Sequence record: NC_052659.1
Direction: 5' to 3' (one strand)
From: Escherichia phage nieznany
Length of the DNA: 64,000 bases
Shown: piece by piece, positions 41,717 to 62,543 of the stretch
Layout: each line of letters starts with the position of its first letter
Position numbering within the stretch: the stretch's first letter is position 1
Notes under the pieces: generated by a model
What the model saw: the letters and a program-made list of their open reading frames with translations, nothing else
Databases searched by the model: none
What the model was told of the DNA's origin: nothing
Program-made: the position numbers and the translations under genes

Positions 41717-42589
41717 ATGAAAGATTTGTACCAAGATGTTTTTTCTTTTTTAGATCGCACTTCAGAAACATACACTAGAGAGAATGCAAACAAACCTTCC
41801 CACCTCGTTAACACGCATAGGGATCTCTTGGCGGGGATTTTAAGCAAACATATGGCAATGACACAGATACTGCCAAAAAACTTGTCAGAATGGCATACAG
41901 AAGGTTTTGGACATATTCACGACTTGGATTATCTGCTCTCTCCTCTTACAAACTGTTGTCTTGTTAATTATCAAGATATGTTAGAGAATGGTTTTAAGAT
42001 CGGTGCTGCACAGATAGAAAAACCAAAATCTATTGGAGTAGCTACTACCGTGCTAACTCAAATCATCCAAGCTGTTGCCTCCAGTCAGTATGGAGGTCAG
42101 ACGTGTGCGCACATTGATAAAGGTCTTAGTCCTTATGTTGAAGCTAGTTTCCTTAAAAACATGGAGATAACCAAACGTCGCTACGGTTGTTATGCAAGGA
42201 AAGAAGCCCTAGAAATGACCGAACAAGATGTATATGACGCTATGCAAACTCTTTTGTATCAGGTTAACACTTTAATGAGTGTTAATGGACAATCTCCTTT
42301 TATTACAATCAGTATGGGTCTGGATACCTCTGTTTTTGGCAGAATGATCACAGCTAACTATCTTAAAGTGCATAGTAACGGTCTAGGTAAAGATCATGTA
42401 ACGCCTGTATTCCCTAAAGTTATTTTCTTTTTACAAGAAGGTGTTAACATGAAACCTAGTGATCCTAACTACGACCTTAAGCAACAAGCTTTGGCATGTT
42501 GTGCTGATCGTATTTATCCAGATTTTATTTCTGTTCCTTTGAACAAAGAAGTTACGGGGTCAGCAGATGGCACTGTTACGAGTATGGGT
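41717..42589 (+). CDS. nrdD: anaerobic ribonucleoside-triphosphate reductase NrdD, exon 1
   Basis: N-terminal half of class III RNR; frame ends in stop shortly after proposed 5' splice site (..TSMG). Confidence 0.65.
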
Positions 42590-43360
42590 AAACTATAACT
42601 GCTCATGTAAAATCTGCCTAAACGGGGGAACTCTCAACAGAGACAATCCCGTGCTAAACGTAACAGAACTCCCAACACAGAAGAAGGGGGGTACTGATAT
42701 GAGAAAACAAATTCGTGATTTTGAAGGGTATGAAATTGACGAGCTTGGAAATGTTTATTGTACCAGGTATAAGGATGAAAGAATCCTTCGCTCGTGGGAA
42801 GAAATAAACACAGGATACCAACTTGTCAGAATACGTAAAAACAAGAAAACTGTTTGCTTTCGGGTGCACAGACTTGTAGCTGAAGCGTTTTTACCCAATC
42901 CAGACAATTTACCTTATGTGAAGCATAAAGGTGACAATAGGAAAGACAACAGTGTATACAATCTTGAGTGGGGATCTTGTCCAGACAACACGCAAGAGGG
43001 TTACGATAATAACTGTTATGCTTTCTACACAAGGTGTCACAGTGTAAAAGCTACTCATAAGGCTACTGGTGAAGTTTTTTACTTTAAAAGTCTGAGATGT
43101 TGTGCTGACGCTTTAGGGTTGGACAGAAAAAGAATATCTGCAATCTTAAAGCAAGGAGCACCAAATAATTATGATTATGAGTTCTGTTACGAAATGCCTA
43201 ACGACTAGCTGTGATGAATGTAGCAGCGTAGGGTGTAAGCCTATGACACCCCAAATGGTAGACATGCTTTAAGCATGAAGATATAGTCTGATCTGCATGG
43301 TGACATGCAGCAGCACGTAATGGTGCGGGAGTGGCCTTGCGAGCCACTTTGAACATAATG
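42590..43360 (+). mobile_element. group I intron (putative) interrupting nrdD, carrying HNH homing endonuclease ORF
   Basis: Exon 1 ends with T; intron ends with G before TGT(Cys); splicing restores frame giving ..TSMG-CRSFLSYY.. and about 604-aa NrdD. Confidence 0.5.
42699..43208 (+). CDS. HNH homing endonuclease (intron-encoded)
   Basis: GYEIDELGNVY ... VHRLVAEAF ... KHKGDNRKDNSVYNLEW HNH family pattern; own RBS. Confidence 0.6.
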   Translation: MRKQIRDFEGYEIDELGNVYCTRYKDERILRSWEEINTGYQLVRIRKNKKTVCFRVHRLVAEAFLPNPDNLPYVKHKGDNRKDNSVYNLEWGSCPDNTQEGYDNNCYAFYTRCHSVKATHKATGEVFYFKSLRCCADALGLDRKRISAILKQGAPNNYDYEFCYEMPND

Positions 43361-44302
43361 TGTAGAAGTTTCTTGTCATACTATGCAACAGAGCAAGGAG
43401 AAAAATATGATGGACGATTCAACCTTGGAGTAGTTTCTATCAACTTGCCTCTGATTGCTGCGGAAGCGAGAAGTAAAGGAGAATCTTTCACCGATCTTCT
43501 TAATAAACATATGGAGATAGCCTACGATGCTCACATGCTACGTGTAAACCGTATCAGACATACCAAAGCATCTGAAAACCCTATTCTTTTCATGGAAGGG
43601 GCTTTAGCGCGTTTAAATGCCAACGATGAAATTGGTGCTTTGTTTGAAGGTGGTTATGCTTCTATTAGTATTGGTTATGTAGGTCTTGCCGAAGCTTTGG
43701 AAATCCTTTATCCAGAGGAAAAAGATAAAAAGGAACTAGGTAAAAACATTCTGCAACATATGAAAGATGTGTGTGCTGTGTTTAAAGAACGATCTAAGTT
43801 GGCATTTAGTCTTTATGGAACTCCAGCAGAATCCTTGTGCTATAAATTTGCAACAGCTTTAAATGAAAAATATCCAGGTCTGGTAGAAAGAGACTATCTT
43901 ACTAATTCTTTTCATCAACCTGTATGGTTGGTAACAAATCCTTTTGAAAAATGGGATTATGAAGCAGGTTTTGCACAGATTAGCAATGGTGGTAACATAA
44001 GTTATGTCGAAACACCAAACTTAAAGAATAACTTAGAAGCTTTGGAGACTTTAGTAGACTACGCTTATGAACATATTCACTATTTTGGTATTAATCAGCC
44101 CGTGGATCAATGCTTTAAGTGTGGTTTTCATGGAGAATTTAAGGCAACGGCTAAAGGGTTTGAGTGTCCTAATTGTGGCAACCATGAAGAAGAAACTATT
44201 TCTGTAGTTAGACGTGTATCAGGGTATCTTTCTGCCCCTAATTCACGGCCTTATAACAAAGGTAAAATGCAGGAAGTTTTGCAAAGGGAGAAACATCTTT
44301 GA
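43361..44302 (+). CDS. nrdD: anaerobic ribonucleoside-triphosphate reductase NrdD, exon 2
   Basis: C-terminal Zn ribbon CFKCG..CPNCG and glycyl-radical motif RRVSGYL. Confidence 0.65.
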   Translation, partial: CRSFLSYYATEQGEKYDGRFNLGVVSINLPLIAAEARSKGESFTDLLNKHMEIAYDAHMLRVNRIRHTKASENPILFMEGALARLNANDEIGALFEGGYASISIGYVGLAEALEILYPEEKDKKELGKNILQHMKDVCAVFKERSKLAFSLYGTPAESLCYKFATALNEKYPGLVERDYLTNSFHQPVWLVTNPFEKWDYEAGFAQISNGGNISYVETPNLKNNLEALETLVDYAYEHIHYFGINQPVDQCFKCGFHGEFKATAKGFECPNCGNHEEETISVVRRVSGYLSAPNSRPYNKGKMQEVLQREKHL

Positions 44303-44989: not shown

Positions 44990-45595
44990 ATGCAACATAG
45001 TGTAGTAGTCAACATGCCGAATAGTGGGGATAAATCTTTTGGTGTTCCTGCTAAAAAAGTATGGAAAGCCCATTTTCATCTTACTTTATCTAACGTTAGT
45101 TCTGAAGAGTTGATGAAAGCAGCTAAGATTATTGGTGCCAAATGCACAACAATTGATTTACATCGGGATACAAAGTCTCAACGTGATCGTATGTTAACAA
45201 AGTATCAAAGCGATCTCGACACTACTTTAATGTTGCAGTGTGTAGAAAAACTTGAGAATGCAGGTTTCAATGTTGTTCGTTACAAACTGGAACGAATGTT
45301 TAAACATGTTGCCTGTGTTCTTTTCATGGATCTAAGTAAAGAAAATTATGGAGAAGTTCACATTAAGACTTCAGCAAGTGATCCCGAAGTAGAAACAAAC
45401 TTCTTCCGTATTTCTTCTAATGCTGAAGAAATTGATTACCGATTTTATAATGCTCGCTTATATTCCGCAGAAGATAAGTTGCGTTTCAATGAAGCGTATG
45501 ATATGCTCTTGAACAGTGGGATACAGATAAAAGGCTACCACATAGAACAAGTTGTGGTAGATAGTAACTTAAATCTTGATGCGTGGTGGGCCTAG
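44990..45595 (+). CDS. hypothetical protein
   Basis: 201-aa ORF after GAGGAGA RBS. Confidence 0.45.
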   Translation: MQHSVVVNMPNSGDKSFGVPAKKVWKAHFHLTLSNVSSEELMKAAKIIGAKCTTIDLHRDTKSQRDRMLTKYQSDLDTTLMLQCVEKLENAGFNVVRYKLERMFKHVACVLFMDLSKENYGEVHIKTSASDPEVETNFFRISSNAEEIDYRFYNARLYSAEDKLRFNEAYDMLLNSGIQIKGYHIEQVVVDSNLNLDAWWA

Positions 45596-45596
45596 T

Positions 45597-46253
45597 ATGA
45601 CAATAAAACATATCTCTTTTGATGTATGGAATACTCTTATTTCTGCCAATCAAAACTATGCAGATGCACGTACGCACACTATTGCTACATATGGTAGAAT
45701 GTCTGAACGTGCGGCAAAAGAAGCGTATAAAGATGCCAAAGAAATTATGGATAATGCTGCACTAAATGGGTGTGCAGAAGGTGTAGCATATGCATGGAAT
45801 ATGTTGGGAAGAAAGATAGGTTTAACCCCTGTAGAATCTGCACAAATGCGTTTTGAATGTGAGCAATGGTTTCTTAAATTTCCTCCACATATCGCTTTAG
45901 ATTTGCCAGTTTGTTTGCTATACTTGTCTGGTAAATATGATCTTAGTATTAAAAGCAATACTAATTTTATATCTGGGGATATTTTGCGTCGTGCTTGTAT
46001 GTTCGACAGTTGGAATTGTTTTGAATTTATGCATTTTTCAGACGAACATCTGTTATGTAAACCAGATCCTAGATTCTTTGTTAGGACCGCCACATATTCA
46101 AGCATTCCTTTGAAGGCTGAAGAGATTTTACATGTTGGGGACAGCGAAGAATTTGATGGTAAATGTGTTGACATAGGGATTAACTTCTGTCATATTAAGA
46201 ACCCTAACGACTTACTAGAGAAACTTAAAAGAGGAGAAATTGTAAATGCGTAA
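45597..46253 (+). CDS. HAD-superfamily hydrolase-like protein (non-canonical motif I)
   Basis: ISFDVWNTL in place of DxDGT, and C-terminal HVGDSEEFD (GDxxxD). Confidence 0.4.
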   Translation: MTIKHISFDVWNTLISANQNYADARTHTIATYGRMSERAAKEAYKDAKEIMDNAALNGCAEGVAYAWNMLGRKIGLTPVESAQMRFECEQWFLKFPPHIALDLPVCLLYLSGKYDLSIKSNTNFISGDILRRACMFDSWNCFEFMHFSDEHLLCKPDPRFFVRTATYSSIPLKAEEILHVGDSEEFDGKCVDIGINFCHIKNPNDLLEKLKRGEIVNA

Positions 46254-47073
46254 TCAAACTCAAATTTTTGCAAATAAATTTGATGACCTGGAAACTGCTA
46301 CTTTTGATATCAAAGATTATTCAAAATTGAAATTTGGTAGTAACCAAGCTGCGCGTCGTATGGGTAAAGAATTGGCACTTCAGTTTTTTGCTCAAGTGGC
46401 AATGAAACATATTGGGGAACAATTTGTTATCATTCCTTCTCCTTATAACCATGTGCATAATGCTGCAACAATGATGACAGATCATTTTATTAATTACTTT
46501 AATATGTTGCAAGCACAATATGATCAAGGTTGTTCAGCAGAACTGGATATTATTCATCGTAAAGTTAGCTATATCAACGATTATGGTTTCTTGGATAAAG
46601 CTAGTCGTAAGAAACTTATTGATGGGGATACATTCTACTGCAACAAAGAATTCTGGGGTGATAAGAAGCTTGTGTTCATTGATGATGTAAATATCACTGG
46701 AACTCATGAAGACAAACTGATTGAGATTCTTGATGAAAATCAAGTTAAAAATGATGTTTACTTCTTGTATTTTGCAAAATATGAAGGTAATCAAGCAGAT
46801 ACTGAAGCTAAACTGAATTTTAACTACATCAATACACCAGAAGCGTTTGTTAAAATGATTAATGAAGAACGTGATGCACAGTGTCTTGTTCGTCCTATTA
46901 AGTATCTTATGGGCCAAAATCACGAAGACTTCAAAATCATTCTTAGCCAATTGCCACACTACTATGTAGAGCAACTTTTCTTCGGATGTTTGGGAGAAGG
47001 TTACAACCGAATTTCAAAGTATGCTGAAAACTTTGAATTCTTGGATCGTTACACAAAACAACACATTCTGTAA
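46246..47073 (+). CDS. phosphoribosyltransferase (type I PRTase)-like protein
   Basis: KLVFIDDVNITGT matches PRTase PRPP-binding motif. Confidence 0.5.
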   Translation: MRNQTQIFANKFDDLETATFDIKDYSKLKFGSNQAARRMGKELALQFFAQVAMKHIGEQFVIIPSPYNHVHNAATMMTDHFINYFNMLQAQYDQGCSAELDIIHRKVSYINDYGFLDKASRKKLIDGDTFYCNKEFWGDKKLVFIDDVNITGTHEDKLIEILDENQVKNDVYFLYFAKYEGNQADTEAKLNFNYINTPEAFVKMINEERDAQCLVRPIKYLMGQNHEDFKIILSQLPHYYVEQLFFGCLGEGYNRISKYAENFEFLDRYTKQHIL

Positions 47074-47086
47074 TAAGGAGCTAAAA

Positions 47087-47560
47087 ATGCTTAAAATGAA
47101 AACAGGTAATCTTATTGATGCCGCTAAAGCAGGTGAAGTAACTGTTATTGCTCATTGTTGCAATTGTATGTGTAATATGGGGGCAGGAATTGCTCCGCAA
47201 ATTAAACGAGCATTCCCTTATGCATATGCGGCAGATTTAGACACAACGGCTGGTGATCAAAGTAAGTTAGGTTCTTTTAGTTTAGGGGTGCCAGACGAAC
47301 AATCAGACCCTTTGGTATATAATCTATACGGGCAATACCGTTACGGATACAATGCTAAAGGTCGTCAGTTGGACTATGATGCACTTTACGATGCACTAAT
47401 AGCTATGGCTAATGATTTGCTTCTCCGTGACCAAAAATGTAAGATCGGCTTACCTATGATTGGCGCTGGATATGCTGGAGGTAATTGGGCTATCATCCAA
47501 GTGATGATTGAAGAAACTTTAGTAAAAACAGGTCACGATGTGACTATTTATAAACTTTAA
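47087..47560 (+). CDS. macro-domain (ADP-ribose binding/processing) protein
   Basis: HCCNCMCNMGAGIA resembles macro-domain N..N..GgGv.A motif; start at ATG 47087 after AAGGAG. Confidence 0.55.
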   Translation: MLKMKTGNLIDAAKAGEVTVIAHCCNCMCNMGAGIAPQIKRAFPYAYAADLDTTAGDQSKLGSFSLGVPDEQSDPLVYNLYGQYRYGYNAKGRQLDYDALYDALIAMANDLLLRDQKCKIGLPMIGAGYAGGNWAIIQVMIEETLVKTGHDVTIYKL

Positions 47561-47873: not shown

Positions 47874-48848
47874 ATGCAACTCGGTTTCCCAGTTATTGAT
47901 GTAGTTGTTTTAGTTGGTATTTTGGCATTGTCTATTGGTATCGATTTCTTTGGTCATAAAGAGAATAAAGAAATTGGAATTAAATCTGCTTTGCTTTGGT
48001 CTGTTTTTTGGATTGCTTTAGCTTTAGGATATTACGCATTCATTTGGGTAGAACATGGTAAAGAGTTTGCCGCGCTTTTCCTAAGTGGCTATGTGTTGGA
48101 AAAGAGTCTTTCTGTAGATAACCTGATGGTGTTCATGGCAATTTTTGCAAGCTTTGGAATTAAGAGCACACATCTCCAACATAAGATTTTACTTTGGGGG
48201 ATTGCAGGAGCCATTGTCTTCCGAGGTATTTTTGTTGCAGCAGGGACCGCTTTGTTTAACCTTCATTGGTCGGTCCAAGTGTTGTTCGGTTTGATTGTAG
48301 CTTGGTCTGCCGTGGCTATCATCAAAGGTGGTGACGAAGAAGAGGATATTGATTACTCTAAGCATTGGGCTGTTCGTTTAGTAGGTAAAGTTCTGCCTGT
48401 GCACAATGCACTAGATGGTGAAAAGTTCATTACCATTAAGAATGGTATTAAATATGCAACTCCTGCTCTTCTTTGTGTGTTTGTTATTGAGCTTACAGAT
48501 ATTGTCTTCTCTTTTGATTCAGTTCCGGCTGTGATCGGTGTGACACAAGAACCTCTGCTAGTTTATTCTGCAATGCTGATGGCTGTTCTTGGTTTACGTG
48601 CACTTTTCTTTGTGTTAAGTGTAGCTGTGAAATATCTGGTTCACTTAGAGAAAGCTGTTGCTGTGGTTCTGGTGTTTGTTGGTGCTAAACTTATGTATCA
48701 CCCGTTCGGTGAAACACTTCATGCCAAGTGGTCATTCCTCCCGCATGATATTTCCCCTAACGTAAGTCTGATGATTGTTCTAGGCACATTATCTCTTGGT
48801 GTTATTGCAAGCTTTATCTTCCCTGAAAAAGAAGAAGCTACTGTTTAA
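47874..48848 (+). CDS. TerC-family integral membrane protein
   Basis: 324 aa, multiple TM helices, conserved acidic residues in helices typical of TerC. Confidence 0.55.
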   Translation: MQLGFPVIDVVVLVGILALSIGIDFFGHKENKEIGIKSALLWSVFWIALALGYYAFIWVEHGKEFAALFLSGYVLEKSLSVDNLMVFMAIFASFGIKSTHLQHKILLWGIAGAIVFRGIFVAAGTALFNLHWSVQVLFGLIVAWSAVAIIKGGDEEEDIDYSKHWAVRLVGKVLPVHNALDGEKFITIKNGIKYATPALLCVFVIELTDIVFSFDSVPAVIGVTQEPLLVYSAMLMAVLGLRALFFVLSVAVKYLVHLEKAVAVVLVFVGAKLMYHPFGETLHAKWSFLPHDISPNVSLMIVLGTLSLGVIASFIFPEKEEATV

Positions 48849-49876: not shown

Positions 49877-50470
49877 ATGACAATTTCTATTCGTACTTCC
49901 ATTACAGGTGTTAAAAGTTTGCCTAATGCTTTGCAAATCACACGTGCTTTGAGGGATACGTTCTCTGCTGTGGATGAGCATAAGATGCTCGATAATCTCT
50001 CAAATTGGCCCTATTTTCATTATTTTAAAAATGAAGACGACGAGTTTATAGACGCTGTTTCTTACGGTTATGATTTCGGTAAGGAGGTTTCTCCTGAAGA
50101 ATTTGTAGTTATGGTGTTCCCAAACGGTTTGCCTACTCGCAGTAAACGTAAAAAAGGACCAAAAAACAAGAAACGTGCTACTAATAAAGCTACCATTTTC
50201 TTTACTGATGGCACACAATATACGATTAAAGATTTTGAAGAGGTATCTTATACAGCAGGTGGGAATCTTTCTTTCTACACCATCAAAAAACAAAACTCTA
50301 CGTTCAGCCATGTTTCTAACATGATTGAAATGTTAGTAGAAGATATTGAAAGCGTAGCTGTGTTAGGTATGCATAAAAGCTTTTTAATTACAAATATTTC
50401 AGATTTCAGTGCACGTTTATCTGGTCCTGATTTTGAAACCACGACCACGCATTTCACTTTTAAGGTGTAA
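49877..50470 (+). CDS. hypothetical protein
   Basis: 197-aa ORF, TAAGGAGA RBS. Confidence 0.45.
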   Translation: MTISIRTSITGVKSLPNALQITRALRDTFSAVDEHKMLDNLSNWPYFHYFKNEDDEFIDAVSYGYDFGKEVSPEEFVVMVFPNGLPTRSKRKKGPKNKKRATNKATIFFTDGTQYTIKDFEEVSYTAGGNLSFYTIKKQNSTFSHVSNMIEMLVEDIESVAVLGMHKSFLITNISDFSARLSGPDFETTTTHFTFKV

Positions 50471-50473
50471 GTT

Positions 50474-51064
50474 ATGTATACCGAGAGAGACTTGCAACTC
50501 TTGTGGTGGGAAGTGATGCAGGAAATAAAAGAAGATTTTCCTGTTTACTACAACATGTTACGTGAAGCAGGATATAAAGCTTGTGTTAGAAACAAAGTGA
50601 ATAACTCTTTCGGTTGGTGCAACTACCGAGATAAAATTGTTGTTGTAAATTGGCACTTGCATAAGAACTCTACAAGAGATATGATCGTGGATACAATGAA
50701 GCACGAAATTGCTCATGCTATTGATGGTTGTATGGGTAAGTTTAGTAGACACGGTGCTCATTGGCAAAAACTGGCAGCAGAGTTAGGGGCTAATCCTAAA
50801 GCCACTTCCAAAGAGCCGTTGAACCACGAATATAAATATGTTCTTGTTCTGGTAGATAGGTTTGCGACAAGATGTGTTAGAGGTTATAATCGTAAACCTA
50901 ATCGCATGTACCCAGGTAAGCAACCTAATATGTGGTTGAAATCAGATAAAGAAGGGACCGAAGGAAAATTATGGTTGTATAAATGGGACGATTGGGTTAA
51001 AGTAGCTAAAGAGTACGGTGTTTCACCATATATAAGAGATGCAGAAGAGGAGAATGAAGAATGA
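50474..51064 (+). CDS. SprT-like zinc metalloprotease domain protein
   Basis: MKHEIAHAI HExxH plus downstream HGAHWQ. Confidence 0.5.
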   Translation: MYTERDLQLLWWEVMQEIKEDFPVYYNMLREAGYKACVRNKVNNSFGWCNYRDKIVVVNWHLHKNSTRDMIVDTMKHEIAHAIDGCMGKFSRHGAHWQKLAAELGANPKATSKEPLNHEYKYVLVLVDRFATRCVRGYNRKPNRMYPGKQPNMWLKSDKEGTEGKLWLYKWDDWVKVAKEYGVSPYIRDAEEENEE

Positions 51065-52173
51065 CAAGTCCATTTTTAAAAGCAGCTACTGGCGGTCAGA
51101 AGAAGCCTGAAATGAGCGTATTTGCTGCAACAACAGATGCAAGTAAATCTGTATTCGCTCCAAGCGTGTTAGATGCCAGTCCTGTTTATGCACCAGCGGC
51201 ACCGCAAGAAGTTCCAGTTTTGCCTTCTATGACCCGACAAGAGATCGAAGAGATTGGGGCAGAGGCAGGAACAACCTTGCGTTCCTTGAATGCCGAGGTA
51301 TTAAAACATCAACGTAGTAATCAAGGCGATCAGATGAGTGAACGACTCACAGCTTTGATTAAACAGGCAAAACAACTTGATCCAAACTCTATTAAACAAA
51401 GCAAGGGTATTACTAAACTCATTAAAAAAGTTATGGGTATGAAAGAAGATCTGTTTGGGGAGTTTGATAATGTTAATAACCGTATTGAAGAGTTGGTAAA
51501 AAACCTTCAAATGGATATTCGCAAAGAAGAAGATTCCTTGGTATATCTTGAAAAGCTACATCAAGCTATTGGACAATATGCTGCAAGTTTGAACCGAGAT
51601 ATGCAGCTTCTAACAGCAACCTATGAAAAAGAAGAACAAGCTTTGGCTGCTCTTCCAGAAGATGCAGTAGAACAGCGACAAGTGATCCGAGATACTTTGG
51701 ATCTTCTGGAGATTCGTATTGCAGATTTAAAAGCATTGCGCCTACTGTGTGTCCAAATGGGACCGCGTGTACAAGGTATGCAAAAAGTTTCTGCAAGCTT
51801 AATGCGATCTGCGCGTAACATAGTAAATAATGTTATTCCTGCTTACTCTGCTAACTTCTCAATGTATATCGAGAGCTTACGTCAAATGAAAGCAGCAGAG
51901 ACGCAGAATAACGTTCTTGATGAATTTAACCTGGCAATTAAACTGGGTAGCGATCTTGCCACACAGAATCAGATCGAAGCAGCAGCACTGGCTAACCGTC
52001 AAGTGTTGGATATTGAAACTCTGCGTCACGATCAGGAAAACTTGGTTAAGATGTTGGAAGAAACTAACCGCATCAATACGGAAGCCCGTGCTGCTCGTGT
52101 TGATTATATTAATGAAGTTCAATCTTTGGAAGACGGGATGGTAGCTGCTGTGAAACGAGGGCTTGGTAAATGA
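51061..52173 (+). CDS. coiled-coil protein, possibly TelA-like (unverified)
   Basis: 370 aa, size and helical character compatible with TelA family; no motif-level proof. Confidence 0.4.
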   Translation: MTSPFLKAATGGQKKPEMSVFAATTDASKSVFAPSVLDASPVYAPAAPQEVPVLPSMTRQEIEEIGAEAGTTLRSLNAEVLKHQRSNQGDQMSERLTALIKQAKQLDPNSIKQSKGITKLIKKVMGMKEDLFGEFDNVNNRIEELVKNLQMDIRKEEDSLVYLEKLHQAIGQYAASLNRDMQLLTATYEKEEQALAALPEDAVEQRQVIRDTLDLLEIRIADLKALRLLCVQMGPRVQGMQKVSASLMRSARNIVNNVIPAYSANFSMYIESLRQMKAAETQNNVLDEFNLAIKLGSDLATQNQIEAAALANRQVLDIETLRHDQENLVKMLEETNRINTEARAARVDYINEVQSLEDGMVAAVKRGLGK

Positions 52174-52370
52174 GAATCCGTATCTATATAATTGATGAGG
52201 ACATTGGTGTCCGTTATGATGACGAAAAACGATTCGCGCCGATGGGAGGCATATATCCCCCAAGTGTTCTAGCAGTTTGTCGTGATTGTTATATTTATGA
52301 AGGTTGTCGTAACTTCCGTAAATTCGAACTCCTTGCAGATATTGACTTCAATGAGGAGGAGGAGGAGTAA
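52170..52370 (+). CDS. small acidic protein
   Basis: 66-aa ORF, Cys pairs and poly-E tail. Confidence 0.4.
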   Translation: MRIRIYIIDEDIGVRYDDEKRFAPMGGIYPPSVLAVCRDCYIYEGCRNFRKFELLADIDFNEEEEE

Positions 52371-52543
52371 TGAAAATATTACGAGTGAATATTGAAACTG
52401 CTTGGTGTGGATGCAATGAGGTTGTGGATATCGAAATTGAAGATGATATGTCTCAAGAGGATATAGAAGATCTTGCACACGAAACCTTTCAGGACTATTG
52501 TAATTACGGGTTCCATATTTTAGAGGAGGAAGAGGATGTTTAA
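52370..52543 (+). CDS. micro-protein (57 aa, acidic)
   Basis: ATG overlapping upstream stop; CGC pair. Confidence 0.35.
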   Translation: MKILRVNIETAWCGCNEVVDIEIEDDMSQEDIEDLAHETFQDYCNYGFHILEEEEDV

Positions 52544-52739
52544 CTACGATAACGACCCTAATATTATCCAGTTAACCCGACAAGAACTGATCACAATCAT
52601 TGAAGATGCTTTTATTGATGGCTGGAATACACAAGACAATGATTGGGGTGGACCCGAAGCTTTTCTGGAACATCATAAAGCTTATGGAGAATTTTGTGAA
52701 ACCACTGTAGCTCTTGATAATCTGAAGGAGGGTTTGTAA
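52536..52739 (+). CDS. hypothetical protein
   Basis: 67-aa ORF. Confidence 0.4.
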   Translation: MFNYDNDPNIIQLTRQELITIIEDAFIDGWNTQDNDWGGPEAFLEHHKAYGEFCETTVALDNLKEGL

Positions 52740-53302
52740 TGGGTTGTTTTAGCTTTTTGTGCAAAGAATCGGGCAAAGCTGCCCTTTCTACTTCTTTCGA
52801 CGGATCACCTTGTTATCTCTTTCTTTTGAAGGACGGTGTTGTTATTGAAGAGATGTATGGCAACTATGATAGTTATGGTTGTGTTTTCTCTGGAAAGGAG
52901 GATGAAAATGGCGTTCGTGAACGGTTCGAATGGGCTATGGATTGGGGTAAGGTTTGTGATTTAATGCATTCCTCGAATCCAAGGGATGGTATCGCTATGG
53001 TGCTGGAAGAGTATTTTACAGGTGAAATCCCTACAGAACAATCTGACGGAGATCCTAACCAAGGTTGGGGTGATGGCGAAGAAGATCCAGATTGTTTTTT
53101 CAGCACAGAAAAGAATAAGTTTAAACGTGTTGACAACCCTTATCACAAAGTGCATAATACTCTCATTGAAACAGAAGATGACAAGATGGAAATTGAAGAA
53201 GATGATCCTCTTGTAACACTTCCTATAAGTGAGTTACAAAAGATCACTAAGGAAGCTTACGATTTGGGCTTCAAAATTGGTAGAGGAGGTATGCGTGTTT
53301 AG
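52739..53302 (+). CDS. hypothetical protein
   Basis: 187-aa ORF. Confidence 0.45.
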   Translation: MGCFSFLCKESGKAALSTSFDGSPCYLFLLKDGVVIEEMYGNYDSYGCVFSGKEDENGVRERFEWAMDWGKVCDLMHSSNPRDGIAMVLEEYFTGEIPTEQSDGDPNQGWGDGEEDPDCFFSTEKNKFKRVDNPYHKVHNTLIETEDDKMEIEEDDPLVTLPISELQKITKEAYDLGFKIGRGGMRV

Positions 53303-53573
53303 ATTCAATATTCAAGAAGAAAAAAGTCAGGATTTACCTATTGCTTTCGAAGATCTTGACGTAGGGGCCACATTCATGTATTATGATGCCTATGAAGACG
53401 CAGGGTTGGATACCTACCGTAACTTGGTGTTCATTAAAAATTCCACAAACAGTGCGATTTGTATTAATGGATCACTAGCACAACGAGGCTATACTCATTG
53501 CATCCCACCAGATACAAATATGGTGGAAGTAGATTTAGAAGTTACCAATATTACACTTAAGAAGGAGAAATAA
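53295..53573 (+). CDS. small protein, paralog A (flanks vWA gene)
   Basis: GTG start; shares ..DLDVG.TF.Y..A..E.GLD.. and EV.L.VT.ITLK with ORF 54595..54864. Confidence 0.45.
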   Translation: MFRFNIQEEKSQDLPIAFEDLDVGATFMYYDAYEDAGLDTYRNLVFIKNSTNSAICINGSLAQRGYTHCIPPDTNMVEVDLEVTNITLKKEK

Positions 53574-53574
53574 T

Positions 53575-54369
53575 ATGTCCGAGAAAATCAGCCTGAAAAA
53601 ACGTCAAGAAAACCTTGCTTTCTCTCTGAAAAAGAATAAGAACCTGAATGAAGGTAAGATTGTTCTTCGTGTAGCATGTGCTCTAGATATTTCTGGTAGT
53701 ATGCATGGTCTATATTCTAGTGGGGTAGTGAGTGATTTTGTAGGTAAACTGCTTCCTTTTGGTATGCTGTTCGACGATAATCAACAAATTGATATGTGGG
53801 CCTTCAATACGAGTTCCCAAGAGCTTACTCCAGCAACAGCAGACGTTTACGATGACTATGTTGGTAAATGTATGCGTAATGTTCGTATCGGAGGTGGAAC
53901 AAATTACGCCCCTGTAATGGCAGATATCTACGATGAGTATTTTGGCACTGTTACCAAATATATTACCACTAAACAAGTGGTACAAGAGGAGGCTCCAAAG
54001 AAAGGCTTCTTTAATCGTCTGCTTGGTAAAACTGAAACAGTGTCTGTAGAGCGTGAAAAAGTTGTAGCTGTATCTGAACCAGGTGCTGACGTTACCCCTG
54101 GTGTTGTATTCTTCCAGACGGATGGTGAGAATGGTGATCCTAGTGCTGTTCGTCGTCTTATTGAAGAGAATAAGAATAAACCTATTTATTGGTTCATGGT
54201 TGGCGTTGGTAATGAGAAGTTTGGCTTCCTGAAAGAACTGGCAAATGCTTATGATAATGTTGGTTTTATTGGCATTAAAGATTTAGACTTGACAGATTCA
54301 GAGCTTTATGACAAACTCTTATCTGAAGAGTTCGGAGAGTGGGTTGTTAAAGTAGGTGCTAAAAAATGA
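53575..54369 (+). CDS. von Willebrand factor A domain protein (TerY-like)
   Basis: MIDAS motif ALDISGSM; N-terminal EKISLKK shared with TerD gene. Confidence 0.55.
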   Translation: MSEKISLKKRQENLAFSLKKNKNLNEGKIVLRVACALDISGSMHGLYSSGVVSDFVGKLLPFGMLFDDNQQIDMWAFNTSSQELTPATADVYDDYVGKCMRNVRIGGGTNYAPVMADIYDEYFGTVTKYITTKQVVQEEAPKKGFFNRLLGKTETVSVEREKVVAVSEPGADVTPGVVFFQTDGENGDPSAVRRLIEENKNKPIYWFMVGVGNEKFGFLKELANAYDNVGFIGIKDLDLTDSELYDKLLSEEFGEWVVKVGAKK

Positions 54370-54614
54370 TCGACGAGCTTGCCTCTCAAGTCGTAGAAAA
54401 TTATTGGCGCGAGAGAGAAGCTTTCATTATGCGCAGTCTCAAAGAGTATTTCATTGGGACTGTGCGAATGGAAGATATTGTAAGTAGAGTAGAGATTCAT
54501 GTATGGCCCGATTATGAAGAATGGGTTGACAAAGAAAATGAAAATGCTATAATTCTTCGTATATACAAACCGGAGATAACATTAGGAGGAAGAAGTGTTA
54601 AACTTCGAAATTGA
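54366..54614 (+). CDS. hypothetical protein
   Basis: 82-aa ORF. Confidence 0.4.
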   Translation: MIDELASQVVENYWREREAFIMRSLKEYFIGTVRMEDIVSRVEIHVWPDYEEWVDKENENAIILRIYKPEITLGGRSVKLRN

Positions 54615-54864
54615 TGAGCAAAAAGTAAATAAACGATGCCTTACCATTAAAGATTTGGATGTAGGAGATACTTTCGTCTATGAAAATGCATTTGACGAAA
54701 ATGGTTTAGACCTTAGTGAAATCATTGTTTATTTAAAAGTAGATGATGGGGAAAATGATTATTCTGCTGTAGAACTAAACCATCATGCACAATTAGTATC
54801 AATCCAAAACACATCTAAGCTTTTGGAAGTAGAATTGACTGTAACTGGTATTACACTTAAATAA
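54595..54864 (+). CDS. small protein, paralog B
   Basis: GTG start; paralogous to 53295..53573. Confidence 0.45.
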   Translation: MLNFEIDEQKVNKRCLTIKDLDVGDTFVYENAFDENGLDLSEIIVYLKVDDGENDYSAVELNHHAQLVSIQNTSKLLEVELTVTGITLK

Positions 54865-54879
54865 TAGAGGAGACAAAAG

Positions 54880-55482
54880 ATGACTGATAAAATTTCCCTG
54901 AAAAAAGGCTCTAGCGAAAAAATTTCCCTGAAGAAAGTTGCTCCGGCTCTGAAAGAACTGCGCCTGGAATTCTCTTGGAAATCTGATTCTAAACTGGATC
55001 TGGATGTAAGTGCACTGGTTTGTCGTCACAATGCCGCTGGCAATCCTGAAATGCTGTCTGCACGTCATCTGGTTTGCTATGCTAACAAGTTTGATCCTGA
55101 ACGTTCTACCTTCGCTGGTGACGATGTTCGTGATGGGACTGGCAGCATGGAGCAGATTGATATTACTCTGGCTAAAATCTCTCCTGATGCACAAGAGATT
55201 GCCTTTGTTCTGACCATTGATGATGATACAGGTCTGAAACGTTTTGGTCATGCTTCTGAAGGTATGCTTAAAATCTTCGACTCCGAGCGTAATGTGGAAA
55301 TTCTGGATTTTGACTTCCTGGCTCCTGAAGTAGCTGGCAACACAATCTGCCACGTGGCTTCCCTGGTTCGTGAAGATGGAGAATGGAAGCTGAAAGCATA
55401 TGGTGTAGGTAAAGCTGGTCTGGATATTTGCGATGTGGTGATGGCCTTCGGTGGTAAAAAAGAATGGTATGAATGTCCATAA
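54880..55482 (+). CDS. TerD-domain protein
   Basis: KISLKK..LKELRLEFSWK..LDLDVSALV ... IAFVLTIDD pattern typical of TerD family; strongly CTG/CGT-biased codons. Confidence 0.7.
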   Translation: MTDKISLKKGSSEKISLKKVAPALKELRLEFSWKSDSKLDLDVSALVCRHNAAGNPEMLSARHLVCYANKFDPERSTFAGDDVRDGTGSMEQIDITLAKISPDAQEIAFVLTIDDDTGLKRFGHASEGMLKIFDSERNVEILDFDFLAPEVAGNTICHVASLVREDGEWKLKAYGVGKAGLDICDVVMAFGGKKEWYECP

Positions 55483-55500
55483 TAATTAACAAATGATTTT

Positions 55501-55528
55501 GAGGGGGAGAAGTCCCCCCTCTTGCAAT
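55501..55528 (+). terminator. rho-independent terminator
   Basis: GAGGGGGAGAAGTCCCCCCTC hairpin followed by T-rich tract. Confidence 0.5.
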
Positions 55529-55582
55529 AAAGCCTCTATCGTGTTATACTAGAAGTTCGTTAACTTAAAAAGGAGGCAAAAT

Positions 55583-56104
55583 TTGCTGATAAAAAACTTT
55601 GTAACAGTTGCGTTACTATCCTTAACTGCTTTTACATTTACACCTGTTGTGGCGAAAGCCGAAGCTGCAAACGTAAAAACCGCTAAAGTAGTTCACAAAT
55701 GTACAAAGCAATATAATGATAAAATTCTATTAGCTTGTGCAATTTACGCAGAAGGTCGCGGTCTGGGTAAAAAAGGAATGAATGCCGTTGGGAATGTGGT
55801 AATCAACAGAAGAAATGATGCCTACTTCCCTAACACAGTCAAGGGAGTCTTGTTCCAGAAAGGGCAATTCTCATATGCGAAAACTTTTAACGTGACAGAG
55901 AAAGATAAGTGGCAGGAAGCAAAAGCAATAGCGGAGCGTTTACTTTATTTAGAGAAACATTTTCCTGAATTGCGGTCTGTTTTAGATGTTACTAAAGGTG
56001 CTCTATACTTCAAGAAACGGAATATAAGGACACACTGGGAGCGTGATATGCGTCTTGTTTATCGAGATAAAGTGCATGGTTTCTATCTACCAAAGGGGAG
56101 TTAA
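55583..56104 (+). CDS. SleB-like cell-wall hydrolase (Hydrolase_2 family) with signal peptide
   Basis: LACAIYAEGRG..GMNAVGNVVINRRNDAYFPNTVKGVLFQKGQFS matches SleB-type conserved block; TTG start after AAAGGAGG. Confidence 0.6.
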   Translation: MLIKNFVTVALLSLTAFTFTPVVAKAEAANVKTAKVVHKCTKQYNDKILLACAIYAEGRGLGKKGMNAVGNVVINRRNDAYFPNTVKGVLFQKGQFSYAKTFNVTEKDKWQEAKAIAERLLYLEKHFPELRSVLDVTKGALYFKKRNIRTHWERDMRLVYRDKVHGFYLPKGS

Positions 56105-56105
56105 A

Positions 56106-56390
56106 ATGCAAGAAGATAATACTGTTGTTGTAGCAAGTTACCTGGTTGTCGGTCTTACCGAAGAGGACGTATACTACACCCGTAAACATTTGGAAGCATA
56201 CGCTACTTTGTTTATGGAAGATGAAAAGGATGTAGATAAATATAGCATTGATATGATCAACGACAGTATTTATCCTTGTATGGTTCTTAAAGTAGATGCT
56301 GTGCTGTGGGAGCGTTTTGCAAGGACTCATGATGCTGTAGAATGCTCCGCAGTAATGTCTCAAAACAACATTTTAGGGGAGATTCACTGA
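56106..56390 (+). CDS. hypothetical protein
   Basis: ATG 56106 after GGGGAG. Confidence 0.45.
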   Translation: MQEDNTVVVASYLVVGLTEEDVYYTRKHLEAYATLFMEDEKDVDKYSIDMINDSIYPCMVLKVDAVLWERFARTHDAVECSAVMSQNNILGEIH

Positions 56391-56620
56391 TGGGAGAAGT
56401 CATTGAAGTAAATTTTCGCACTAAACAAAAAGTGCAAAAATATGTTGTTATTAAAAACATTTGCGTTGTCTGCTTCAATACTGTAATATACGATTCACGA
56501 CGCGGAGAAAACGAAAATGAACCTTACATTGAAATTTCTAAGAACAAAGGTCAATGTATTTGTAAGAACTGTGCAGTAGCTATTAAGGAGGTTGTAAATG
56601 AAAACGCTTGGGACCAATGA
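56390..56620 (+). CDS. small Cys-rich protein
   Basis: CVVCFN ... CICKNC motifs; ATG overlapping upstream stop. Confidence 0.4.
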   Translation: MGEVIEVNFRTKQKVQKYVVIKNICVVCFNTVIYDSRRGENENEPYIEISKNKGQCICKNCAVAIKEVVNENAWDQ

Positions 56621-56789
56621 AACTGGCGAGATCTCTCTTCAAGAAGTGACAAACGACAAGCTGATTAAACTACGGGATGTAGCTCGTGACCATCTCCAAG
56701 AATCTTTTAAAGAATATATGGAAGCACGAGATCGTGTCATCCAAATCCAACAAGAAATGATTAAACGTGGGATTGTAGCTGACAGTTAA
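56598..56789 (+). CDS. hypothetical protein
   Basis: 63-aa ORF. Confidence 0.4.
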   Translation: MKTLGTNETGEISLQEVTNDKLIKLRDVARDHLQESFKEYMEARDRVIQIQQEMIKRGIVADS

Positions 56790-56805
56790 TATAACGGAGG
56801 GGAGA

Positions 56806-57369
56806 ATGATTTATTATATTACTCCCTATCTGACAGGAAATATCGGCAAGGCTATCAATGAAGCTATTGCCGTTCTTCCAGATGATAGTTGGGTGTGCTT
56901 AAGAGATACCGATACAATGTTCCTCCTGCCTGATCAACCATCTATGCTTGAAGAGCTTATTATGTCAAACCCGCCTTTTGATGTAATAGGTGCAACTTGT
57001 AACAGGTTAGGTAGTGGTTATCAGCTTTTCTCTAACCAAATTAACGATGATCCAAATATTCTAAACCATATAGAATATGCTAAGATTGCAAGAGAATATC
57101 ATAAAGTGAGTGTTGAAGAAGTTCCTTTCGGAACACCTCTGGCAGGTTTCTTTTTGCTTTTTAGAAAATCATTGTGGAATGAAATTCCTTTCGAAGAAAA
57201 ATCTATCCAATTCGACCTAATTTTCTCTCGCACTTTACATGAAAAAGGAAAAAGGTTAGGATTGATGCGGGGAATGTATCTGTTTCACATTTACAGATTA
57301 GGTCAAACAAATCCTCAACGGTCTATACATCATTTATTACACTGTCACGATCACAGTAAAACTATCTAG
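56806..57369 (+). CDS. glycosyltransferase-like protein (GT-A-like, tentative)
   Basis: DTD acidic motif (WVCLRDTDTMFL) after hydrophobic strand. Confidence 0.35.
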   Translation: MIYYITPYLTGNIGKAINEAIAVLPDDSWVCLRDTDTMFLLPDQPSMLEELIMSNPPFDVIGATCNRLGSGYQLFSNQINDDPNILNHIEYAKIAREYHKVSVEEVPFGTPLAGFFLLFRKSLWNEIPFEEKSIQFDLIFSRTLHEKGKRLGLMRGMYLFHIYRLGQTNPQRSIHHLLHCHDHSKTI

Positions 57370-57377
57370 GAGAGAAA

Positions 57378-58061
57378 ATGGAAAATATTAAAATCGGAGT
57401 GGGTGTTATCACTGTAGGTGTCCGTCCACTTAAAGACTATCTTGTAACAGATCCACATGCAGATTTTCGAGTATTCAACGATCCAGATCGTAAAGGTGTA
57501 GCTTACGCCAGGAATGAACTTATGCACCAGTTTTATGAAGAAGGTTATGATTATTGGTTTATTTTTGACGACGATTGCTACCCAATCATGGAGGGATGGG
57601 AAACATATTTTGTAGATCAAGCTGTCTCTGGAGGATGGGATTTCTTTGGTATGCCGGAGTATTTCAAAGATAAAGTTGTTGGGAGTAAAGGAGAAGTTAT
57701 TCTCTGGGAACTTGCAATGTGTCAATTTGCAATGTATTCTCGTGCCGTTGTTGAGAAGATGGGTTATTTCCGCCCTTACACTCACGGCTATGGTTTTGAA
57801 GATGCTGAATGGGTACACCGTTTGAAAGCTGCTGGTTTGAATCAGGGCATTCAGGCAATACCTTGTCCACTTCATATCATGGCTTATATCCACCCAGACG
57901 ATGTTTTTGGAAACAATCCTATGCCTTTTGCTAATCTGACAAAAGAAGAGAAAGAAGCTGCTATTGGCATTAACTGGGAAGAATATAAAGCGTCTTTAGA
58001 AGATATTAAAAATGGGAAAATCCGAATTTCTTATGAGGAGGCACTGGCACATGTCAAATAA
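57378..58061 (+). CDS. glycosyltransferase-like protein (GT-A-like, tentative)
   Basis: DYWFIFDDDCYP DxD-type motif. Confidence 0.4.
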   Translation: MENIKIGVGVITVGVRPLKDYLVTDPHADFRVFNDPDRKGVAYARNELMHQFYEEGYDYWFIFDDDCYPIMEGWETYFVDQAVSGGWDFFGMPEYFKDKVVGSKGEVILWELAMCQFAMYSRAVVEKMGYFRPYTHGYGFEDAEWVHRLKAAGLNQGIQAIPCPLHIMAYIHPDDVFGNNPMPFANLTKEEKEAAIGINWEEYKASLEDIKNGKIRISYEEALAHVK

Positions 58062-58998
58062 AAAATGGACTAAACTGAAAATTGATGCAAAACCTCACAG
58101 TGGTTGTGATTATCATCGTATTGTTATACCATTTAACAACAATAATCTTCAACCTAAGAAAGATGTTGTTGTGTTTAACCGTATTCACTCTAAAGGTGCA
58201 GAATATGTTTTGTCCCTGAAACGTCAAGGTGTTAAGATTGTTGTAGATTTAGATGATTTCTACCAACTTAATCCAGAACATTATTTAGCAAGTCTATACG
58301 AGTCAAACACCCATTCTATTGTAGCTATGGTTAAGCTTGCTGATGTGGTCATTGTGACTACGGAATACTTGGCATATAAGATCCGTCACTTAAATAGGAA
58401 TGTTGTTGTGATCCGAAATGCACTTCCTTTTGATAGCGGACAATTCACTTTGTCAAATGATCGTTCATCCGGTACCCCTGTCGTATGGGCTGGCGGTGCT
58501 AGTCACGAACCCGACTTACGACTAGTCTCTAATACTTTCGACGATGACCTTCTTACTATTGCGGGATATGAGGCATCACAGAGCATCACGGGACAAGAGT
58601 GGATTAAGATTCGCAGAAATTTACCAAATGCCAAATATAAAGCCGCTGTAAAAGATTTAGATAATTACATGAGTGTTTACGAGGGTCATGCTATTGCTAT
58701 AGCTCCTCTGGTAGATAACGATTTTAATAATTGTAAAAGTAATCTCAAAATCTTGGAAGCTGGGGCAAAAGGTATTCCAATTGTTTGTTCTAAGGTATTA
58801 CCTTATTTTAACCCTGTAGATGCTCGCGCTGTTGCTTACGCAGAGAATAAAGCAGAATGGCATTACGAAATTGTTAAGCTTCTTCGCAATCCGAACTATC
58901 GGGAAGATCGTGGCTTGTTCTTAGCGGAACATGTTCGAACACATTATAATCTGGCAGATGCAAACGAATTGCGACGCCAGGTTATTGAAAGTTTGTAG
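58051..58998 (+). CDS. glycosyltransferase, GT-B-like C-terminal domain (paralog 1)
   Basis: NxKSNLKILEAGAKGIPIVCS resembles GT4-type E-x7-E region; paralogous to next gene. Confidence 0.45.
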   Translation: MSNKKWTKLKIDAKPHSGCDYHRIVIPFNNNNLQPKKDVVVFNRIHSKGAEYVLSLKRQGVKIVVDLDDFYQLNPEHYLASLYESNTHSIVAMVKLADVVIVTTEYLAYKIRHLNRNVVVIRNALPFDSGQFTLSNDRSSGTPVVWAGGASHEPDLRLVSNTFDDDLLTIAGYEASQSITGQEWIKIRRNLPNAKYKAAVKDLDNYMSVYEGHAIAIAPLVDNDFNNCKSNLKILEAGAKGIPIVCSKVLPYFNPVDARAVAYAENKAEWHYEIVKLLRNPNYREDRGLFLAEHVRTHYNLADANELRRQVIESL

Positions 58999-59005
58999 GT
59001 GAAGT

Positions 59006-59950
59006 ATGGGACAAATAATTCTTGACAATCGTAACGGAATCAATTATAGTGTCTGCGATTTCCATAGGGTAGTGCTGCCTTACTCAAGGCAGTTCTCTTC
59101 ACAACCTAAATACAACGTTTTCGTTTTTAACGGAGTGCCAACAAAAGGTAAAGAGGGCTTTTTAGCCCTTAAAAACCTGGGCTTTAAAATGGTTATGGAT
59201 TTGGATGACTCTTTAGTTATTCCAAAAGGACACATGTTAGAAGGTATTTTTGAATCAGGTATTCGTGAACATTTAAAATGGTTTTTAGAGCACAGTGATC
59301 TTGTTACAACTACGACACCTGCCTTGCAAGTTGAACTTTCACAATACAATGATAATGTGCACATAATCCCTAATGGACTTCCTTACGATGAAGGTCAATT
59401 TGTGTTGACCCGTGATCGCTACTCCAAAACTCCATTAGTCTGGGCTGGAAGTGAAACACATAAACAAGATTTGGCTATCTTGCCCGATTTTGGTAAAGAT
59501 CTTACAATATGTGGTTTTCGTAGGGATTCTGAAGTTTTAAGTAGTCGTGAATGGTCTTTAATCAGGGAAAATGTAGCACCAACTTGTGTTTATGAAGGTG
59601 TAAGACCATATGCCAACTACATGGAATCTTACGATGGTCATCAAATCAGTCTTGCACCATTGATCGATAACGTGTTTAATAATGCAAAAAGCAATCTTAA
59701 AATTCTTGAGGCAGGTGCTAAGGGTTTACCTTTAATCTGCTCTCCTCGTGAGAATTATCATACACAAGAGTTTAAAGATTTGTTATTCTTTGCTGAAACA
59801 CCTTCCGAGTGGAAAGATATTACGGAATACTTATTAAGTGCTCCCGATGTTTGCATGGAGAAAGGATTAGCATTAGCTAAGTATGTCAGGACTCATTATC
59901 ACATTGATGTGTTGAATGAGCGTCGTAGACTTTTATTTGAGGAGCTATAA
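59006..59950 (+). CDS. glycosyltransferase, GT-B-like (paralog 2)
   Basis: NAKSNLKILEAGAKGLPLICS; collinear similarity with 58051..58998. Confidence 0.45.
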   Translation: MGQIILDNRNGINYSVCDFHRVVLPYSRQFSSQPKYNVFVFNGVPTKGKEGFLALKNLGFKMVMDLDDSLVIPKGHMLEGIFESGIREHLKWFLEHSDLVTTTTPALQVELSQYNDNVHIIPNGLPYDEGQFVLTRDRYSKTPLVWAGSETHKQDLAILPDFGKDLTICGFRRDSEVLSSREWSLIRENVAPTCVYEGVRPYANYMESYDGHQISLAPLIDNVFNNAKSNLKILEAGAKGLPLICSPRENYHTQEFKDLLFFAETPSEWKDITEYLLSAPDVCMEKGLALAKYVRTHYHIDVLNERRRLLFEEL

Positions 59951-60228
59951 TGATTAACACTTTTGATTTTGAATACACCACTCGTAACGGGAAAGCCTTG
60001 GTTGTGGAGGTGGATTACTATTATGAAGAACCTAATCCACTTTCTCGTGAAAGCGATTGGGATTACCACGGAGGGCTTTTAATTGACGGTATTCGTTTTT
60101 ATGAAGGATCTACAGAAGTTTTTGAAAAAGATTTAAATGTAACTGTAGCAGAAATTGCTTTCCAATTTAGAAAGCACATGGAAGAACTAGAAGCAGAATA
60201 TATGATGGAGACTAACGAACCATTTTAA
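59950..60228 (+). CDS. hypothetical protein
   Basis: 92-aa ORF. Confidence 0.4.
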   Translation: MINTFDFEYTTRNGKALVVEVDYYYEEPNPLSRESDWDYHGGLLIDGIRFYEGSTEVFEKDLNVTVAEIAFQFRKHMEELEAEYMMETNEPF

Positions 60229-62111: not shown

Positions 62112-62543
62112 ATGCGTATGACAATCGATCTGAATGCAAAAGTTAAAGCTGCTGGTGCTCTGGGTGCTGGTGTTATTAAACACAAACAAGCGTTGGCATT
62201 TGCCATCCCACATATGATTGTTGAGGATCATCCTGAAGAGTTTGCTGTAAAAGTTGTTGAGAACAATGTCTCTGTTATTGAACATCTTCCAACTGGACGT
62301 TCTTACCGTGTTGTTTCTTCTAAAGGTTTCCGTTTCGATGTAAGCCCTTCTTTCACAAAAGGTGCTGGTCGTAGTAAAGTGGGTATTCTTTCTTACAAAT
62401 ATTATATCGATAAAGTTGCAGATGGTGTTGCATTCTGTCGTGTAAGTGAAGGTAAAGTAGATATCATCTTTAAAAATACCAAAAACATGGTTATTTCTGA
62501 CGATGGTAAAGTTGACCTCACTATTGAGTTCGCTAACAACTAA
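62112..62543 (+). CDS. hypothetical protein
   Basis: 143-aa ORF, AGAGGAGAAG RBS. Confidence 0.45.
   Translation: MRMTIDLNAKVKAAGALGAGVIKHKQALAFAIPHMIVEDHPEEFAVKVVENNVSVIEHLPTGRSYRVVSSKGFRFDVSPSFTKGAGRSKVGILSYKYYIDKVADGVAFCRVSEGKVDIIFKNTKNMVISDDGKVDLTIEFANN

Follow-up and report, generated by a model that had tools for sequence, protein, structure and literature searches.

The locus comprises a TerD-domain gene and, upstream of it on the same strand, genes for the other components of a Ter system (Table 1). It is situated in a window (the whole stretch of DNA that was analysed, 64,000 nucleotides) from a phAPEC8-like myovirus (Phapecoctavirus, Stephanstirmvirinae). When positions 50000–60000 of the window were compared by megablast, Escherichia phage ESCO13 (NC_047770.1) matched over the full length with 99.7% identity, and 63 more near-full-length matches were obtained, from phAPEC8-like and phi92-like phages. 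The genome of ESCO13 (149,813 bp, 256 ORFs), of which the window represents the reverse complement in this region, was used as the whole-genome codon background. Weights for the codon adaptation index (CAI) were derived from E. coli K-12, using 24 of its ribosomal-protein genes, while 39 ordinary K-12 genes served as a second reference.

Elsewhere in the window, the gene nrdD (anaerobic ribonucleotide reductase; 41717–44302) is split into an N-terminal half (41717–42598) and a C-terminal half (43331–44302). Between both halves lie an ORF for an HNH/I-HmuI-like endonuclease (42567–43208) and a match to a group I intron (43071–43310; 39.7 bits, below the Rfam gathering score of 50, E 2.5e-8). 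Since nrdD of ESCO13 is uninterrupted (604 aa), the window phage differs from ESCO13 by the insertion of a mobile intron and a homing endonuclease.

Table 1. Features of the TerD locus and of the Ter gene cluster, in window coordinates.
Feature	Position	Strand	Remarks
HAD-like hydrolase, weak match	45576–46253	+	E 0.0014, under the Pfam cut-off
ComF-like phosphoribosyltransferase (PRTase_3)	46246–47073	+	
Macro-domain ORF	47021–47560		between the PRTase and TerC genes; weak Pfam Macro match
TerC-family membrane protein gene	47874–48848	+	
TelA-family gene	51061–52173	+	unremarkable codon usage (CAI 0.40)
Second strong sigma-70-type promoter match	53130–53158	+	11/12; precedes the small-ORF paralogue and the vWA gene
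Small-ORF paralogue	53295–53573	+	phrog_11278; immediately precedes the vWA gene; start as annotated in ESCO13
vWA-TerF-like gene	53575–54369	+	CAI 0.505 (relatives 0.55–0.72); CTG 8/21; CGT/CGC 8/8
Sigma-70-type promoter, predicted	54526–54553	+	TTGACA-16 nt-TATAAT with TG extension, 12/12
Small ORF	54595–54864	+	89 aa; phrog_11278; CTG 0/12; GC3 0.20; CAI 0.38
Shine-Dalgarno GAGGAG	54867–54872	+	7 nt before the TerD ATG; read from the sequence
TerD-domain gene	54880–55482	+	ATG 54880, TAA 55480–55482; 200 aa; Pfam TerD match; codon-usage outlier
GC-rich hairpin GAGGGGG/CCCCCUC, predicted	55501–55521	+	−14.7 kcal/mol; 19 nt past the TerD stop codon

In this cluster, TerD is accompanied by TerC, TelA, a TerF-type vWA protein, PRTase_3 and the weak HAD-like match, which is the association characteristic of a Ter system, and the order of the Ter genes is the same in phi92 and in metagenomic relatives. 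Ter systems have been described in jumbo phages and also in 'certain other related smaller tailed phages' by Iyer, Anantharaman, Krishnan, Burroughs and Aravind (2021; PMC7824862), and enzymes of the PRTase class for the biosynthesis of nucleotide derivatives were described for Ter systems in the same work. The jumbo-phage systems share the component set of TerD, TerC, TerF-type vWA, TelA and PRTase with the phage studied here. In contrast, the present carrier is a 150-kb non-jumbo coliphage, and codon usage and expression level lie outside the scope of that paper. The PHROGs families to which TerD (phrog_5698), the vWA protein (phrog_5359) and the small ORFs (phrog_11278) belong all lack an assigned function. 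None of the PADLOC defence models matched TerD, vWA, TelA, TerC, PRTase or HAD. The Macro-domain ORF was the sole match, to the DarG model (E 2.6e-10), and judging from its sequence it may encode a Ter-cluster-associated enzyme that removes ADP-ribose.

The phage TerD protein matches the Pfam TerD profile (PF02342) with 98.9 bits (cut-off 25.3), whereby residues 5–179 cover profile positions 3–177 of 187. Phmmer aligned it end to end with Klebsiella TerD 2KXT (E 1.5e-15) and also matched 3IBZ (2.9e-14). Residues D40, D42, D82, G86, G88 and E91 are invariant among the aligned phage and plasmid TerD/TerE proteins. The phage protein shares the PF02342 domain with TerD/TerE of the enterobacterial terZABCDE(F) tellurite-resistance operon (PDB 2KXT/2KXV), at a protein identity of about 30%, and the DxD and GD...G.G..E positions are invariant in the alignment. 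In Klebsiella TerD, the Ca2+-binding residues reportedly consist of the DxD motif and the motif GDN(R/L)TG(E/A)GDGDDE. In the phage clade, DVR--DGTGxxE replaces DNRTGEGDGDDE, with the loss of two or three acidic residues; here, the GDGDDE stretch has become GTGxxE with a two-residue deletion. As in the phage, TerD of the terZABCDE(F) operon co-occurs with TerC and with a TerF-type vWA protein. The phage, a lytic carrier, differs in possessing a single TerD instead of the TerZ/A/D/E/F paralogue set.

According to the original prediction, nearly all leucine codons of the TerD gene are CTG, unlike those of its neighbours, and the counts bear this out. Of the 19 Leu codons, 18 are CTG and one is CTT, while TTA, TTG, CTA and CTC do not occur. 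Across the 256 ORFs of ESCO13, CTG accounts for only 14% of Leu codons (TTA 25%, CTT 24%, TTG 22%), and the CTG excess in TerD is accordingly strong (binomial P = 1.2e-14). No other ORF with at least six Leu codons in the 64-kb window uses CTG for more than 50% of them. Among the neighbours, CTG takes 0/5 Leu codons in ORF 54366–54614 and 2/16 in the hydrolase gene (55583–56104), none in the small ORF and a minority in the vWA gene (Table 1). The exclusive use of CGT (7/8) and CGC (1/8) for arginine, with AGA, AGG, CGA and CGG absent, had been predicted as well and is correct; however, its contrast with the genome is weak (CGT plus CGC 58%, AGA plus AGG 26% in the 256 ORFs; binomial P = 0.013), because CGT is already the commonest Arg codon of the phage. 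Codons with zero use in TerD include ATA, AGA, AGG, TTA, TTG, CTA, TCA, CGA, CGG and CCC. The GC3 value of TerD is only 0.36, compared with about 0.31 genome-wide; thus, the codon bias is not a GC effect or a GC island. It is also specific to the gene rather than regional, because the ORF located 15 nt upstream has the opposite usage. The quantitative codon analysis therefore found a strong difference between TerD and its flanking genes.

The codon adaptation index against E. coli, one of the checks proposed with the prediction, placed the window copy of TerD first among the 256 phage ORFs (CAI 0.704, z = 3.9), while the ESCO13 copy has a value of 0.683. The mean over all phage ORFs is 0.393 (sd 0.081), compared with 0.706 for the E. 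coli ribosomal-protein genes and 0.427 for the 39 ordinary E. coli genes. TerD is followed by the major capsid protein (MCP; 0.693), the head decoration protein (0.667), gp236 (0.657), the SSB-like gp244 (0.633) and the tail sheath (0.541), so that its CAI falls within the range of the abundant proteins of this genome and of the host ribosomal-protein genes. When the TerD protein was redrawn 100,000 times with genome-average synonymous frequencies, the mean CAI was 0.405 (sd 0.031) and the maximum 0.559, and the observed value exceeds this null simulation with z = 9.6. In terms of per-codon likelihood, the ribosomal-protein pattern describes TerD better than that of ordinary E. coli genes does, by 0.15 bits/codon.

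A host-free check was carried out by principal component analysis of RSCU for 134 ORFs of at least 120 codons. The first component (17% of variance) follows CAI (r = 0.78) but is uncorrelated with GC3 (r = −0.14), and it is driven by CGT, CTG, GGT, GCT and TCT versus AGA, TTA, ATA and AGG. TerD lies at its extreme, and next in order come the genes for the SSB-like protein, the capsid protein, gp236, vWA-TerF and the sheath. In its codon table, TerD resembles the MCP and decoration genes and the E. coli ribosomal-protein genes (CTG, CGT, GGT, GCT and TCT; no ATA, AGA or CTA). In the two-codon families (Asn, Ile, Tyr, Asp, Gln), the adaptation of TerD falls short of that of the capsid gene, which indicates that the signal leans heavily on Leu and on the avoidance of rare codons. 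TerD is outside the ten lowest values of the effective number of codons (Nc), which is a poor detector of the TerD signal because the two-codon families of this gene are unbiased.

According to Lucks et al. (2008; PMC2266997), structural genes of coliphages favour the codons that their host prefers. The same pattern of a few host-codon genes against an AT-rich phage background is seen here for the MCP, decoration and sheath genes. In contrast to that pattern, the top gene in the present genome is the non-structural TerD, situated in the replication/auxiliary block behind a sigma-70-type promoter, and it is adapted mainly in Leu, Arg and the four-codon families, less so in those with two codons. 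The phenomenon of translational selection on abundant phage proteins is well known, and the new element is the gene singled out by it.

Two further genes stand out in the same ranking. The ORF at 62112–62543 (143 aa, ESCO13 gp236, phrog_9938, no Pfam match), with the fourth-highest CAI of the genome, is located between the primase-helicase gene and the genes of gp237 and DNA polymerase. Its codon ranking suggests that the uncharacterised gp236 is probably another very abundant protein. The gene of ESCO13 gp244 (46539–47426 of that genome, beyond the window) is annotated as a hypothetical protein and uses CTG for 10/16 Leu codons. Its C-terminus matches the single-strand DNA-binding protein families of phages, and gp244 is probably the phage SSB, at present unannotated.

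The codon bias is retained in every TerD orthologue examined. The CAI values (with CTG per Leu codons) are 0.639 (15/21) in phi92, 0.748 (20/21) in Citrobacter phage Tr1, 0.662 (9/17) in Klebsiella phage FKP3 and 0.706 (14/18) in phiWec181, while the genes flanking these orthologues range from 0.24 to 0.55. In two metagenomic relatives, whose TerD is 52–54% identical to the phage protein, TerD again tops the locus in both CAI and CTG share (8/20 and 9/20 CTG versus about 10% elsewhere). Synonymous differences between the lineages amount to a pS of about 0.55–0.82, corresponding to a dS of approximately 1 or more, or saturation. The pS of TerD (0.53–0.62) compares with 0.59–0.82 for the neighbouring genes and is the lowest of the compared genes in three of the four lineage comparisons; in the fourth, with FKP3, TerD and the hydrolase gene share the lowest value. 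Selection must maintain a bias that, against an AT-rich background, outlasts the saturation of synonymous sites. Within the Ter neighbourhood, the vWA-TerF gene is the second most codon-adapted gene (CAI about 0.50–0.72 across relatives), the codon usage of TelA is average in every genome scored, and that of TerC does not stand out in phi92 or in one metagenomic relative.

The surroundings of TerD also contain predicted signals for expression. The site at 54526–54553 is the sole perfect sigma-70-type consensus in the 64-kb window, where 0.07 would be expected by chance, and it is situated about 40 nt ahead of the small ORF and 327 nt ahead of TerD. An identical perfect site is present in phiWec181; however, this conservation is not independent evidence, because the flanking coding stretch itself is 85% identical to phiWec181. 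In phi92, Tr1 and FKP3, the vWA gene and TerD are not separated by an ORF, and a promoter-like site (TTGACT/TTGACA...TAAAAT/TAGAAT) lies directly 5′ of TerD. Just 15 nt lie between the stop codon of the small ORF and TerD with its Shine-Dalgarno sequence, and the small ORF is probably co-transcribed with TerD despite its opposite codon usage. The predicted hairpin downstream of TerD is likely a terminator or an mRNA-stabilising stem. It has no clean T run, and its folding energy is modestly better than that of shuffled sequences (z = −1.8). GC-rich hairpins of differing sequence occupy the same position after the TerD stop codon in phi92, Tr1 and FKP3, and the energies across lineages range from −13.6 to −14.7 kcal/mol (z = −1.7 to −3.9 versus shuffles).

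The perfect promoter could be read by the host RNA polymerase at time zero, which leads to the alternative that TerD is translated right after infection, before the phage tRNAs accumulate, and avoids the codons of these tRNAs without being specially abundant. Indeed, TerD contains no AGA or ATA and few GGA, ACA, CAA and CCA codons, i.e. the codons matched by the phage tRNAs listed for ESCO13, which include Arg-TCT, Ile, Thr-TGT, Gly-TCC, Gln-TTG and Pro-TGG (the 64-kb window itself holds no tRNA genes). However, none of the ESCO13 tRNAs is for Leu, and independence from phage tRNAs therefore cannot explain the preference for CTG over TTA, TTG and CTT. Furthermore, the late capsid genes share the bias of TerD, while the small ORF immediately before it, probably part of the same transcript, has a strong AT bias. 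The presumably early block, which is rich in small genes and promoters, has a mean CAI of 0.400 and a CTG share of 0.15, the same as the rest of the genome. All four transcriptional blocks of the genome are indistinguishable (mean CAI 0.39–0.41, CTG share 0.13–0.16), which shows that the TerD effect belongs to the gene and not to an expression-time class. Timing class was therefore rejected as the main cause, and we regard this alternative as unlikely.

Much less probable is a non-translational constraint on the codons, imposed by an antisense gene, an RNA structure or a DNA motif. An ORF on the minus strand (54799–55353, 184 aa) does overlap most of TerD, but an open antisense frame is expected in a gene without TTA, CTA and TCA codons, and the TerD domain match belongs to the plus-strand frame. 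This ORF was thus rejected as a gene and is considered a by-product of the missing codons. Moreover, the same codon class is found in the unrelated capsid, decoration and SSB-like genes, and no Chi site is present in or near the TerD gene.

The other origin suggested by the original prediction, recent acquisition from an enterobacterial host or plasmid whose codon usage would still be visible, is refuted by sequence comparison as far as the searched collections allow, although CTG and CGT/CGC are the commonest Leu and Arg codons of E. coli and ter operons are common on enterobacterial plasmids (a TerD-family match in 2,317 records by tblastn of 72,556 plasmids). The proposed nucleotide BLAST of the TerD gene against bacteria (blastn, 11-nt words) was negative for all 5,426 complete E. 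coli genomes searched, and the best protein identity to TerD/TerE of enterobacterial plasmids is only about 31%. In a search of 5.8 billion proteins, all those more than 44% identical to TerD were on phage-like contigs. The GC3 of plasmid terD/terE is 0.54–0.58, with about 0.5 or more in the rest of the plasmid operon, well above that of the phage gene, and the ordinary E. coli pattern describes TerD no better than the phage average (−0.06 bits/codon). TerD is present in 131 phage records, compared with 130 that match the surrounding 10 kb, and it is syntenic in essentially all of these approximately 130. Synteny extends to the more distant metagenomic relatives, in which the bias likewise persists over saturated synonymous divergence: the gene order in two metagenomic contigs is TelA, vWA-TerF, small ORF, TerD, cell-wall hydrolase, primase-helicase and DNA polymerase, with TerC upstream on one of them. 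A host-like codon island in a phage is, on its own, no evidence of horizontal transfer.

Combined, these results favour, with a probability of roughly 0.8, TerD as a long-resident core gene in which translational selection has moulded and preserved the synonymous codons, as in the most heavily made phage proteins. Since its usage is shared with the capsid genes and kept in distant relatives, TerD is probably a very abundant phage protein and not a recent host gene. The very high expression that the original prediction had offered as one of two alternatives is supported, indirectly, by the capsid codon class, by the bias kept in orthologues and by the promoter, ribosome-binding site and hairpin. 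A literature search returned no expression, proteome or functional data for TerD of phAPEC8-like or phi92-like phages, and no transcriptome or proteome of infection by Phapecoctavirus or Justusliebigvirus.

Under translational selection, the following mechanism seems plausible. Host RNA polymerase would probably transcribe a short unit consisting of the sigma-70-type promoter, the small ORF, the strong ribosome-binding site, TerD and the hairpin. The most abundant tRNAs of the host would decode TerD efficiently, with selection keeping the matching synonymous codons, and the codon usage suggests that TerD would be translated at a very high level. Such a protein would be required stoichiometrically rather than catalytically, and TerD may thus represent the bulk soluble component of a phage Ter system made up of TerC, TelA, vWA-TerF, TerD, PRTase and the weak HAD-like protein. 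We infer from the present analysis that TerD is a high-abundance Ter component, as is vWA-TerF to a smaller extent.

The function of Ter systems is poorly understood, and the codon usage flags TerD, and secondarily vWA-TerF, as the components needed in bulk, while TelA, TerC and PRTase look like proteins of ordinary level. A stoichiometric TerD would be more in keeping with a structural or buffering protein than with a catalyst or a signalling component. It has been proposed that phage Ter systems act in the competition with superinfecting phages (Iyer et al. 2021, PMC7824862). More speculatively, and following published proposals, these systems might remodel the cell envelope during infection or guard it, for instance from superinfecting phages. 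As a tentative extension, TerD could be made in capsid-like amounts from the first minutes of infection, by way of host RNA polymerase, and serve as the bulk Ter effector that seals the cell against superinfecting phages or envelope damage. On the same, equally speculative reading, TerD might act for example as a Ca2+ or metal buffer or as a sub-membrane layer, built together with the moderately codon-adapted vWA-TerF. If this is true, a stoichiometric mode of action would also apply to the TerD-type proteins of bacterial Ter systems, in whose operon terD and terE again show the strongest codon adaptation. In the ter operon of a Klebsiella plasmid (1999–6570 of the sequence examined), terB, terD and terE have a CAI of 0.60, compared with 0.28–0.50 for the others, namely terZ (0.45), terA (0.40), terC (0.50) and the ATP-grasp and HAD genes.

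The arrangement upstream of TerD occurs twice in the cluster. A duplicated cassette (53130–53573 and 54526–54864) consists of a strong sigma-70-type promoter followed by an ORF of about 90 aa, and each copy immediately precedes a Ter gene, either vWA-TerF or TerD. The two ORFs are paralogues, because both match phrog_11278. In phi92, an 89-aa ORF is kept ahead of the vWA gene.
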